From: Escherichia coli
Lineage (GTDB): Bacteria > Pseudomonadota > Gammaproteobacteria > Enterobacterales > Enterobacteriaceae
Assembly (NCBI RefSeq): GCF_044324785.1
Contig: NZ_CP172127.1
Length of the DNA: 64,000 bases
Reading direction: 5' to 3' (one strand)
Of this stretch, positions 24,991 to 28,051 are shown in pieces. The position numbers were made by a program, and so were the translations under genes. Below the pieces are notes generated by a model. It was not told the DNA's origin. It saw nothing but the letters and a program-made list of their open reading frames with translations, and did no database searches. How positions within the stretch are numbered: the first letter of the stretch is position 1; each line of letters begins with the position of its first letter.

Positions 24991-25403
24991 TATCGTAACC
25001 TCCCGTACTGGTCACGGGCAGACTGTTCATCATGTTAAACCCAGCCGCTGTCAGATCATGCACCGGCCGGATGGCGGGCTGACCTGCCCCGCCGCGCTGC
25101 TGCCCGCCAATCCATTTCTTACCTTCCTTCCCGGTGGCCTGACGTCCGGCCTCGTCCCCTTTCACCGCATCACCGTCACCGCTGTTCACCACCTTCTTGT
25201 ACTCTTCCAGCATCGCTGGCCTGCGTCCATTTGCTGCGATCAGAAAAGTCCATCATCCGTTTTGCCATGTTCTGGCAGTTCAGTTACGCCTTGTCGAAAG
25301 CCACATTCGCCTGCAGCACACCGTTGGTGATCATGTCGTACAGGCCGGGGTTGGCACGCTGTATCACCATCGCCGGCAGACTGGCAGCGGCGCCGGTCGC
25401 CCC

Positions 25404-26114
25404 CTAAATCACATCCCCCATCAGATTTTTAAAGCCGTCGGTCAATCCGTTAAGATGATTACCCACCGTGGTCTTCAGGTCAAAGTTGCCGCACATCAGA
25501 TCGCTGCTCCAGCCCAGGTCCATACCCAGCTTCTGCATGTTGCTGCGCGTGGCCAACTGTGAGATCACCGAGCCGCCACCCAGCGTATAGAACAGTTTGT
25601 CGGATACGGCGCCATCCACGGATTTCCCGTAACCGAACGTGCTGTCATTCAGTTTCGGCAGGGAAAGAAGATCAGCCATCGCCGGAATACTGCAGTACAG
25701 CATCACACTCAGTGCCACCATACCTGTTTTCATCTTCATCATCATGGTTCCTTAAAAATTCGTACTGCCAAGGAATCGCTGCCCGCGCTTTTCGAAGCAG
25801 CTGTAAGGCTGCCACAGTGCAAAGGCTGCATTACCGTTCTCCGCCGCCTGGTGTTCACCATCCGGGAAAACGGCACAGGAACGCGACACTGACGGCGTCA
25901 GTCGCTGCCATTTGTGATTGCGGGTGCCGGTGTTTTCCTCCACCGCCTCCGGGGGCCAGTAGCCGTCACGTTTCACGCCCTTAACCTCCCTGTAGACATG
26001 CGACTCCCCCATCCGCGTGATAATGTCGGCCACCCGCTGAGCCCCCACCGCCGCGGCCCGGTCATCATCGCTCTGCATCACAAAACCACTCCGGTGATAA
26101 ACGCTCCCCCACAT
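25404..26114 (-). pseudogene. stop-interrupted secreted-protein fragments, possibly conjugative-element derived
   Basis: Signal-peptide ORF followed by in-frame stops; weak recall-based assignment. Confidence 0.3.
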
Positions 26115-26195
26115 GTTTTTATCGGCCTAGCTGCCAATCTCGCGTTTGCCGGGAACCTGTGCCTCTGGATACAGGGATTCAGGTAATCCCGTTCG

Positions 26196-26726
26196 CTAGA
26201 CGATGCTGTCCAGGGTACTGAGGAAATAGGCCATGGCCGGTGTCACCGGTGAATCACAGCTGAATCCGGGTACCATCCCGCCGATAAGCTGTGTGGCCGG
26301 ATGACCCAGCGCATCTGCATATTTGAAACGAATTGCTGAACGGCGCTTCCCCTGTATTTTCATATCCGCCGGATTTCCCCCGCCGGCACTCAGCCCGGAC
26401 AGGCCGTCAGTGATGGCATTCTCCGGGCCACCTGCGGTCCGGCTGACCAGCGACATCTCTTTCCAGGGATTACCACCCGGTGCCGTATAGGTGGAAATAA
26501 CCACTTCCGGGATGAAATGTGTCACCTTCACGGAAATTCTGACCGTACAGCCAGACGCGCTGCAGTAAAGCCAGTAACAAATCCCGCTGACACGCCAGCT
26601 GATATAGTCCGGTGCCGCAGTACTGGCGATAATGCTGGCGGTGTTCAGTGATACAGACGCCAGGGGCAGTGATGCCACACTCAGTAACAGCACGCCGGTA
26701 CGCAGACGACATTTCAGGGACATCAT
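26196..26726 (-). pseudogene. TraU-like conjugative transfer protein fragment
   Basis: Signal peptide then GICYWLYCSASGC region; interrupted by stops. Confidence 0.4.
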
Positions 26727-26839
26727 GGCTGCACTCCTCCCTCAGCACGGATTTTCCCGGCCATCACCACATCCATGGTGCCGTAAACCACCTCACTGTC
26801 ATCAAACACCACGGCAGGGTATTTCTTCACGCCCAGCGA

Positions 26840-27118
26840 CTAGGCATGTGCCACATCGCGGTAATGACCGGCCAGTTCCGCCTGCATCGTCTGCCATTCG
26901 GGAGACTTCATACGTACCCTGACCACCGATTCAGCCTCACCCGCATCAGCAGGCAACAGGCCCCAAAAGCGGCTCTGAAGCTGCTCAGGCGCATCCAGCA
27001 GAACCACCCTGACACCATCAGGAGGATTAACGGGAAGATGCTGAGAATCGGTATAAATTGTTGTGCCGGCAGACGCTGCCAGCGGCAGGAAAAACAGGGA
27101 ACAGAAAATCCGGTACAT
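26840..27118 (-). pseudogene. small secreted conjugative-element-associated protein, stop-interrupted
   Basis: Signal peptide; frame continues after a TAG into ...KKYPAVVFDDSEVVYG... Confidence 0.3.
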
Positions 27119-27127
27119 CGTACACCT

Positions 27128-27148
27128 CAGTCAGATATTATCTGACTG
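27128..27148. repeat. perfect 21-bp palindrome (10+1+10)
   Basis: CAGTCAGATA T TATCTGACTG, 10 bp upstream of the minus-strand start at 27118. Confidence 0.6.
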
Positions 27149-27313
27149 ACAGCGTGCGAAGAAAGCGCTCATTTATCAGCAATAAATTAAAAACGGGATT
27201 AAAAAATTACGGTGGGATCCGGGGAAGTGTATCTGCCAAGCATAACAGACAGTCTGTGATTATACCCGGCCTTTCACAAAGCCGGGGAACTGATTCATAC
27301 CAAGTGGTGATTT

Positions 27314-27565
27314 TCAACAATAAGTATAATGAGGTTGTCCCGGCACCGGTGGCAGTGGTTCGAGATAGACGTCATCAACAAAAACACAGGGGAATTTTTC
27401 AACTGCACATCCAGCACGCTCAGACATTACCTTCAGACTGATACCATGTTTCTCAGCATCAATAAAGAGGACATCTGCCCCTGTTTCATCCCGGAGATTT
27501 GTCGCATGATGCATGATCCGGTGTACTGAAGGACATGTTTTGTAACCAAAAACACATATACGCAT
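27314..27565 (-). CDS. hypothetical small protein
   Basis: ORF 27314-27607; start taken at MRICVFGYKTCP. Confidence 0.3.
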   Translation of the reverse strand: MRICVFGYKTCPSVHRIMHHATNLRDETGADVLFIDAEKHGISLKVMSERAGCAVEKFPCVFVDDVYLEPLPPVPGQPHYTYC

Positions 27566-28051
27566 GTTGCACCTCCTGATCACTGGTTGACGCCGATAAT
27601 AAAACAATAATGTGAGCGTAAAAAATGCACCTCATACCACATTTCTGTAAAAGGCTCTGGCTATCACTGCAAAAAGCAAAATCTTAATTCCAGCATCACT
27701 TGTTACTCTCATTCCGTCACTTATATTTACCCACATGGCGATGTATTTAATTACTGCCCATAAGAATAAAAGCCGCTGGCGGATTATTTCTTTATTACCC
27801 GGATGCGGTCACAAGCCCACACATCGTCAACTACCTGCCGGTAATATTAACTGTCAGAAGAACGCATACATCCGGATGTTTACAGAGTCGCGCGCCTGGT
27901 CACAGGTGACAACAGAAGTATGCCATACTAAAGGAGTAAACGGCGGGTCACTGGTGATCAAACACCTGCATCGTGTGTTGCTGCCACTGCCCTCAGGTGA
28001 CAGAGGCAGCATCTTTACGTATTATAATGCGTTATATCGGGTTTGTTGTTA

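Follow-up and report, generated by a model that had tools for sequence, protein, structure and literature searches.

A fossil operon head of an integrative and conjugative element in Escherichia coli, and a predicted leader stem-loop enclosing the Shine-Dalgarno sequence in its relatives

A decayed operon head with a palindrome at its start

The DNA considered here is a 64,000-nt stretch of the Escherichia coli contig NZ_CP172127.1, referred to below as the window, which carries on its minus strand a short remnant of an integrative and conjugative element (ICE). The remnant consists of three broken genes of the TIGR03757, TIGR03756 and TIGR03755 families and, immediately ahead of the first of them, a perfect palindrome. 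Our overall reading, which we regard as likely, is that this is the fossil head of an ICE operon and that the palindrome belongs to a leader hairpin which would mask the Shine-Dalgarno (SD) sequence within an activator-dependent promoter module. The genes and the two features at their head are as follows.

26723-27118, minus strand: pseudogene of TIGR03757/DUF1525 (NCBIfam, E=5.5e-17; Pfam DUF1525; alignment to the intact protein)
25752-26726, minus strand: TIGR03756/TraU-like pseudogene, full length (NCBIfam TIGR03756 on both halves; Pfam TraU)
25003-25742, minus strand: TIGR03755 pseudogene, N-terminal half only (NCBIfam; tblastn against the intact protein; codon comparison)
27127-27149, both strands: perfect 11+1+11 palindrome of 23 bp, apical part of the stem-loop (inverted-repeat search)
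27118-27159, minus strand: leader stem-loop enclosing the SD sequence GAGG at 27125-27128 (RNA folding with shuffle control)

A first-pass annotation of this DNA had proposed that 25000-27610 is what is left of an ICE with one TraU-like gene, and profile searches, the annotation pipeline PGAP and intact relatives all bore this out. The two pieces of the TIGR03755 gene matched their NCBIfam family at E=1.8e-23 and 5.7e-22, and a 176-aa N-terminal fragment of the TIGR03756 pseudogene matched Pfam TraU (PF06834) at E=3.3e-16, 60 bits against a cutoff of 26.5; TraU matches are also precomputed for intact homologues. Across 324 residues the TIGR03756 pseudogene is 93.5% identical in amino acid sequence to the protein of the intact ICE in MS15052. 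In other genomes carrying the same DNA, PGAP names pseudogenes of all three families, and the identity of the ICE remnant is thus already captured by standard annotation. The DNA from 24950 to 27650 is 100% identical to that of many avian and human extraintestinal isolates.

The damage was scored by codon comparison and blastn against the intact relative MS15052 (90-95% identity). The TIGR03757 gene is interrupted at W93 (TGG>TAG, 26840-26842) and the TIGR03756 gene at W177 (TGG>TAG, 26196-26198) and Q200 (CAG>TAG, 26127-26129). The TIGR03755 gene has in-frame stops at Q113 (CAG>TAG, 25404-25406) and Q153 (CAA>TAA, 25284-25286), is frameshifted near 25215-25222, and is cut at 25003, after about residue 246 of 472, by a fragment of an integrase core of the IS3 insertion sequence (IS) type. 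The in-frame stops claimed by the first-pass annotation are therefore real, and the total across the three genes is five stops, one frameshift and the IS truncation. All five stops are single transitions (TGG>TAG twice, CAG>TAG twice, CAA>TAA once) and four of them are amber. Nonsynonymous differences outnumber synonymous ones in each gene (16 to 8, 21 to 14 and 11 to 6), which fits relaxed constraint. One metagenome copy (L025) has a sixth stop beside the first, which shows that decay is still going on.

The three genes are adjacent and keep the family order of the type G mating-pair formation (MPF-G) triplet, with the TIGR03757 stop codon overlapping the TIGR03756 start. All three have signal-peptide-like N-termini when the translations are read by eye; the secreted character of the products thus agrees with the first-pass annotation, but its count of three or four open reading frames (ORFs) reduces to three genes. 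A tblastn search with 34 proteins of the intact G1/2 ICE found these three genes as the only ICE backbone in the window, and the complete transfer machinery (VirB4-type ATPase, TraD, TraG, relaxase, integrase and the ParA/ParB region) was not found there. In the related element ICEclc, BisD is a ParB-domain protein and BisC a DUF2857 protein (PMC7423338); no gene for either was found in the window (tblastn with G1/2 ICE proteins; Pfam). We conclude that 25003-27209 is the fossil operon head of an ICE of the SPI-7/ICEclc (MPF-G) type, the rest of which is gone. The stub of about 2.2 kb is no longer an ICE, and with its genes dead and BisD/BisC-like activator genes absent this copy is nonfunctional.

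The palindrome as the apex of a leader stem-loop

The palindrome was described in the first pass as a perfect 10+1+10 repeat lying 10 bp upstream of the start at 27118. It is perfect and it does lie at the gene start, but the arms extend to 11+1+11 (plus strand, TCAGTCAGATA T TATCTGACTGA) and the distance to the ATG (27116-27118) is 8 nt. None is expected by chance (100 shuffles of the window); it is the sole strong inverted repeat in 24500-28100 and occurs once in the window. Among 5,426 complete E. coli genomes it is present in 59, at one locus each, and a search for further copies found none. The pattern does not match a repetitive extragenic palindromic (REP) element or other dispersed repeat, and the objection that the palindrome is a common REP element fails.

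The perfect 11+1+11 form was also found in four metagenome contigs and is always tied to the decayed allele. Compared with the family consensus GTCAGTCAGATATTGTCTGACGGAGG it carries three changes, T>A at the centre, G>A and G>T, which all lie in or beside the 3' arm and each of which perfects the repeat; the G>T change also weakens the SD sequence from GGAGG to GAGG. The perfect form is thus a derived variant of a normally imperfect stem. Quasipalindrome template switching is a mutational mechanism that perfects imperfect inverted repeats, and our guess is that a single such event could have produced it. These same observations, namely confinement to a pseudogene allele and three changes that act as one template switch would, are what would be expected if the palindrome were a mutational artefact in dead DNA and the hairpins of its relatives had no function. 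That may account for the perfection of the repeat, but not for an SD-enclosing stem with compensatory changes kept in about 25 lineages down to 45% protein identity, and we consider it highly improbable as a full explanation.

Related leaders were gathered from E. coli genomes, 37 metagenome contigs, Klebsiella and Pantoea plasmids, Pectobacterium, Brenneria and Acerihabitans; the pattern used for the metagenome collection left the inner stem and the loop unconstrained. A second E. coli type, Edwardsiella, Erwinia, Kluyvera and four more distant representatives were also included. A scan of genome contigs with peptide patterns gave four loci only, the patterns being too specific. Between lineages, DNA homology extends about 95 nt upstream of the TIGR03757 ATG, at 70-90% identity, and then ends at cargo; the leader is recognisable down to about 45% protein identity.

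Each of the 20 unique leaders of the first set (50 loci) was folded independently, and in every one the SD sequence GGAG falls in the 3' arm of a stem. The opposing 5' arm, which pairs with the SD sequence (anti-SD), is formed by a conserved box, CGCAC(G/C). The stem of the window is the most stable of the E. coli type, at -21.9 kcal/mol (z = -5.25). Across lineages the pairing is kept and the sequence is not: the arms are GTCAGAUA/UGUCUGAC in E. coli, GUCAGAC/GUCUGAC in Klebsiella and Edwardsiella, GUCACG/CGUGAC in Pantoea and CCUUAGAC/GUCUAAGG in Pectobacterium. Single stem positions run from A-U through G·U to G-C, and others from U·G to C-G, while the loop measures 1, 5, 6, 7 or 8 nt. In a table of pairs anchored on the SD sequence, changes on both sides of the pair were seen at seven positions (-1, -3, -4, -5, -6, -8 and +4). 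The G residues of the SD sequence are paired in 14 of 16 leaders, and conservation extends to a 1x1 mismatch at the A of GGAG. The minimum free energy of the sense strand is below that of the antisense strand, again in 14 of 16 leaders, by a mean of 3.3 kcal/mol. Most of the further lineages also have the stem, with a co-varying lower helix, and the distant loci L061 and L062 sequester the SD sequence by different sequences.

In a MAFFT alignment, 82% of cells were paired against 28-44% with slid partners; this alignment misregisters three to six rows with the shorter Pectobacterium-type stems, which makes the pair count conservative. The covariation score on the same alignment was matched by 3 of 500 shuffles. 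Rfam gave no relevant match at E<=10 for the window or at E<=1 for eight related loci. An intrinsic terminator was considered and rejected: the stem is followed by GGTGTACGATG and by no U tract, and a terminator scan was silent here.

The variable spacing of the arms, their compensatory changes and the bias towards G·U pairs lead us to read the palindrome as an RNA helix and not as an operator or a parS site. The sequence comparison places it as the apex of a conserved, predicted RNA stem-loop in the TIGR03757 5' leader of about 25 lineages. The first-pass annotation had instead called it operator-like for a dimeric regulator, now lost; on such a reading the regulator would bind the DNA and repress the TIGR03757 operon. 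Perfect 11+1+11 symmetry beside a gene start, just downstream of a promoter-like module, and the absence of ICE regulator genes from the window are in keeping with that proposal. A dimer-binding site, however, needs conserved half-sites at a fixed spacing. Here the arms are imperfect in intact ICEs, with perfection confined to the decayed allele, neither the half-site sequence nor the spacing (1, 5, 6, 7 or 8 nt) is conserved, the arms are exchanged in compensatory fashion (GTCAGA/TCTGAC, GTCACG/CGTGAC, CTTAGAC/GTCTAAG), and the deviations are mostly G·U pairs on the sense strand. We therefore think an operator very unlikely. The accompanying idea that the regulator gene has gone stands insofar as BisD/BisC-like genes are absent from the window, but the missing partner would be of the promoter-activator type and not a dimer that binds the palindrome.

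A related possibility is a parS-like or bisS-like site at which a clamp of the ParB-like BisD would load. The bisS sites of ICEclc are of 11-n-11 form, GAGCTATCCCCnGGGGATAGCTC (PMC12409273), the same geometry as the palindrome, and the ICE family encodes a ParB-family protein. The palindrome nevertheless has no sequence similarity to bisS, whose sites lie in the regulatory region (inrR and ssb genes) and not at the TIGR03757 operon; no intact relative is palindromic, the spacing varies and there is a single copy. We find this reading scarcely credible.

If the palindrome is part of an RNA stem, the stem could still be structural and without a translational role, as a 5' stabiliser or as an RNase III or RNase E site at which a long polycistronic transcript would be divided into an ATPase segment upstream and a TIGR03757 segment. 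The conserved, covarying stem with helices of 14-19 bp would suit such a role, and ICEclc core transcripts are cleaved or processed at closely spaced genes (PMC2892462). What speaks against it is the enclosure of GGAG by the 3' arm. This is the one feature that nearly all lineages keep, including those with unrelated stem sequences, and a stabiliser or processing site would not need it; we judge a purely structural role improbable. The reading we prefer is that the stem acts on translation. With the SD sequence in its 3' arm and the anti-SD box CGCAC(G/C) in its 5' arm, the stem would keep the ribosome off TIGR03757, and we infer that by blocking binding of the 30S subunit it would limit expression of the operon. 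The downstream genes overlap or abut TIGR03757 and so probably depend on its translation.

The promoter-like module and its RAQPRD paralogue

The stem-loop is embedded in a module of about 90 bp, in which an AT-rich block is followed by CTGnnn, 17 nt, CA(C/T)nnT and then 34-39 nt to the ATG. This arrangement was found in 20 of 21 lineages, L063 being read by hand. In the window its parts are the following.

27180-27209, minus strand: AT-rich upstream block, TAATTTTTTAATCCCGTTTTTAATTTATTG (alignments; a paralogous block precedes the RAQPRD gene)
27174-27179, minus strand: hexamer CTGATA (alignment across lineages)
27157-27173, minus strand: 17-nt spacer of variable sequence (alignment across lineages)
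27151-27156, minus strand: box CACGCT, part of the anti-SD 5' arm and a candidate -10 element (position and spacing fixed in 20 of 21 lineages)

The block, which sits 25-80 nt upstream of the palindrome, has the family pattern …AATTTTCA…(T/A)(A/T)GA(A/G)TTT…TT(G/A), and it is within the block, at 27198-27209, that homology to intact ICEs stops. The spacer is exactly 17 nt long in 20 of 21 lineages but free in sequence, a combination typical of promoter spacing. The A at position 2 and the T at position 6 of the box are invariant, yet only 12 of 21 rows have A2 in a pair, and T6 wobbles where a C would pair better, which indicates a constraint beyond pairing, at the level of the DNA. Promoter scans found no sigma-70 consensus promoter in the module. 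With the box far from TATAAT and no sigma-70 match, any promoter here would need an activator, and we infer that the module is an activator-dependent promoter. Sigma-54, sigma-E, IHF and FlhDC-box readings of the block were rejected by eye, their spacing or bases being unfit.

A paralogue of the module, with the same AATTTTCA start, precedes the RAQPRD gene in the intact E. coli ICE. Its parts are ATAGAGTTTATCG, CTGATC, 17 nt, CATGCT and …CTGACGGAGG…ATG. It was found in four lineages and has a helix of its own, ACGCACC/GGUGCGU, adjoining the AUG. The fixed position and spacing of the box hold also in the RAQPRD modules, in Tistrella mobilis and in an orphan RAQPRD module, L068 (NZ_CP025703.1 3275768-3277153, at about 600-700), which has the box TATCCT, the helix ACGCAC/GUGCG and only a stub of the gene. 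L068 is unannotated, lies beside an FxLYD-domain gene and occurs in about 190 complete E. coli genomes (60-80% identity tier).

The RAQPRD module provides a link to ICEclc. The transfer-competence promoters of that element share a motif ending in TTGC(A/T), which in P67231 and Pint is placed 59 bp ahead of the start codon (PMC9286271, S3 Fig), and peaks of BisC chromatin immunoprecipitation have been found on these promoters (PMC12409273). Ahead of TIGR03757 the block has TTGCT, TTGAT or TTACT as its end, likewise at a distance of 59 nt from the ATG. In T. mobilis pTM3 (L064, NC_017958.1 43445-48487), a P67231-like motif is found 59 nt before the RAQPRD gene, with CACGAT at the position of the box; this locus is unannotated in the plasmid collection and also carries small type IV secretion system (T4SS) genes after the RAQPRD gene. 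From the Tistrella homologue, orf67231 of ICEclc corresponds to the RAQPRD gene; an equation of orf67231 with TIGR03757 was considered and rejected, the homologue being the RAQPRD gene. The intact G1/2 ICE encodes a ParB-family protein (so named by PGAP, with no Pfam match) and a DUF2857 protein (E=8.7e-66).

The counterpart of the TIGR03757 operon itself in ICEclc is probably the 58432-53587 transcript, judged by transcript size and gene order: that transcript is 4.7 kb long (PMC2892462), and in the intact relatives the TIGR03757 operon is 4.7 kb and ends with TraG. Promoter P58432 has its motif at -190 bp, is weak, and shows no depletion of reads upstream in RNA-seq, which indicates read-through (PMC9286271). 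A search of the intact ICE for the skeleton CCGGTTT-N8-TTGC gave two matches against 0.45 expected, a result equalled in 13 of 200 shuffles and not significant. A longer consensus pattern of the two modules, in which one N was misspecified, recovered only the RAQPRD copy and nothing new. In its geometry the module resembles the BisDC-dependent promoter class of ICEclc, and we treat this as a supported lead and not as proven membership.

Cargo slot, proposed function and known systems

Complete relatives of the element are present in E. coli MS15052, G1/2, SI-NP020, UMNK88 and others. They carry ParA, an SPI-7-type DnaB, a ParB-family protein, DUF2786, DUF2857, TraD, TIGR037xx T4SS genes, TraG and an integrase, as well as SPI-7-type STY4528 and STY4534. 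The order of genes is conjugative ATPase, a small hypothetical gene, a variable slot, TIGR03757, TIGR03756, TIGR03755, a hypothetical gene and TraG. The slot is a hotspot for cargo, and its contents differ by lineage (loci L002, L004, L010, L054, L056, L058, L059, L060 and L015): iha, an AraC regulator with DUF1187, a YobI ATPase, Schlafen/AlbA, Abi_2 with an AcrVA2-like gene, AbiE, ART-PolyVal, MarR or nothing. The upstream genes (iha, AraC, ATPase) are often on the same strand as the module; in some lineages the cargo is on the opposite strand. The terminator scan found no terminator-like site of note between iha and the module.

The neighbours of the remnant in the window include the following.

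28052-30139, minus strand: iha, siderophore receptor/adhesin (PGAP on identical DNA; 93% identity to L002, MS15052)
27199-27978 (780 bp), minus strand: cargo-slot segment without a counterpart in the MS15052 ICE (blastn against L002)
24584-25009, minus strand: IS3-type integrase-core fragment bounding the remnant downstream (ORF translations; PGAP [quoted passage not shown])

The iha gene adjoins the module upstream on the same strand and occupies the same slot in the intact ICEs of MS15052 and SCU-171; homology of the window to MS15052 was found by blastn over 25003-27198 and 27979-30253. Judged by these alignments, the iha island of these avian pathogenic and extraintestinal pathogenic E. 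coli genomes is a decayed derivative of an intact iha-carrying ICE. Carriage of iha as ICE cargo has already been reported for ICEEc8 (PMC6455142). Within the segment lacking a counterpart, a small glutaredoxin-like ORF (27314-27565, minus strand) matched NCBIfam GrxA at E=3.8e-8, below the cutoff, and had no Pfam match; one RefSeq genome labels it "thioredoxin domain-containing protein". In JNEC-KY171 (L013, NZ_AP045167.1) an IS66 element inserted 33 nt upstream of the TIGR03757 ATG replaces the entire promoter-leader module, and the operon otherwise looks intact. The island around the remnant is a patchwork of IS3, IS5, IS110 and IS630 fragments. A full-length IS5 (InsH-like, 338 aa, 23459-24475, plus strand) lies just to the left of the remnant, and LS45, identical over 24950-27650, differs at the IS5 site, where it has an SgcJ/EcaC gene. 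The DUF2786 protein of the intact ICE also matched an ORF at 17820-18404 (plus strand), at 37% identity; that ORF is probably part of another island.

How an SD-masking hairpin would serve the intact element can be modelled in two ways. According to the first, which we prefer although in our estimate it falls somewhat short of an even chance, the hairpin insulates the operon. The box would be the -10 element and native transcription would start about 7 nt after it, inside the 5' arm, giving a transcript that lacks the anti-SD and leaves the SD sequence free. Read-through RNA, whether it entered from the ATPase operon or out of cargo such as iha, would carry the full hairpin and remain untranslated. 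Fold-back inhibition in IS10 and IS50 follows the same logic. Such a mechanism would account for two features: the placing of the hairpin exactly where a cargo hotspot borders the operon, and the overlap between anti-SD and box. In the second model, to our mind rather unlikely, transcription starts upstream of the box and the hairpin is present in the native mRNA, where temperature, an RNA, RNase III or a protein would have to open it. We also offer, tentatively and with considerable doubt, the generalization that in enterobacterial ICEs of the SPI-7/ICEclc type CGCAC(G/C)(C/T)T doubles as -10-like box and anti-SD arm, so that only transcripts started by the element's bistable activator are translatable and the operon is insulated from cargo, with the same device repeated at the RAQPRD operon.

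Several points weigh against these proposals. As a sigma-70 -10 element the box is poor, agreeing at A2 and T6 and nowhere else. Likeness to the ICEclc motif consists of short strings, and the CCGG part of the motif is not kept in Pectobacterium-type modules. An A x C mismatch interrupts the stem in two metagenome variants, the 5' arm is disrupted in Kluyvera, and L060 is without clear SD pairing; hairpin stabilities spread from -10 to -32 kcal/mol between lineages. Many rows are closely related E. coli variants and independent events are therefore fewer than rows. The insulation model turns on a predicted placing of the hairpin relative to the native 5' end, and if transcription in Tistrella began 7 nt past the box, most of the 5' arm would be kept. 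The Tistrella leader suggests that the insulation logic may not be universal and, together with the range of stabilities, keeps the second model in consideration.

The window copy itself carries little weight here, its genes being dead and already annotated as ICE pseudogenes. If the hairpin does gate translation in the intact relatives, it would add a post-transcriptional layer to a bistable transfer-competence circuit and may explain how virulence or defence cargo can sit inside the transfer cluster without switching the cluster on. The block, 17 nt, CAnnnT and the SD-enclosing stem would then serve as a signature for operon heads and cargo slots in such ICEs. If the insulation model holds, an ICE could host strongly expressed cargo (iha, AraC, Abi, Schlafen, YobI) amid its T4SS genes.

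Among known systems, the gene content is that of the SPI-7, PFGI-1, ICEclc and ICEHin1056 group of ICEs with a GI-type (MPF-G) T4SS, which share the TIGR03757-TIGR03756-TIGR03755 triplet in this order; the window retains only 2.2 kb of such an element, inactivated by five stops and a frameshift and cut short by an IS. The promoter-leader module was not found in Rfam or in the ICEclc papers PMC9286271, PMC12409273, PMC7423338 and PMC2892462. Compared with the ICEclc transfer-competence promoters (P67231, Pint and P58432), the module agrees in ICE family, gene order and the presence of ParB-like and DUF2857 genes in the intact E. coli ICEs, and it resembles P67231 and Pint in having a block with an end similar to TTGC(A/T) at 59 nt. 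It differs in that the sequence match is short and partly lineage-specific, and BisDC dependence of the enterobacterial elements is a conjecture; PMC9286271, PMC12409273 and PMC7423338 describe no SD-sequestering leader and no 17-nt spacer with a box, and P58432, a weak promoter with its motif at -190 bp, has an architecture unlike the TIGR03757 module.

The leader can also be set beside RNA thermometers of the ROSE and fourU types, with which it shares an SD sequence held in an imperfect helix that has G·U pairs and, across from the A of GGAG, a conserved 1x1 mismatch; in the Tistrella leader UUGCU and AGGAA form a helix that flanks a G x G mismatch, in the manner of ROSE elements. It departs from them in having no Rfam match and in a spread of stabilities (-10 to -32 kcal/mol) unlike that of a calibrated thermosensor.

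Fold-back inhibition of read-through transcripts was reportedly described by Davis, Simons and Kleckner in 1985 and by Krebs/Schulz and Reznikoff, for IS10/Tn10 and IS50/Tn5. As in those elements, the 3' arm of an inverted repeat covers the ribosome-binding site, the 5' arm is predicted to overlap the native promoter and start region, which would leave both arms together only in transcripts begun outside, and outside transcription could enter. What differs here is the setting: in place of a transposase gene at the end of an element, the sequence protected would be the head of a T4SS operon that lies within an ICE and borders a cargo slot in its interior, and its start site is a predicted one.

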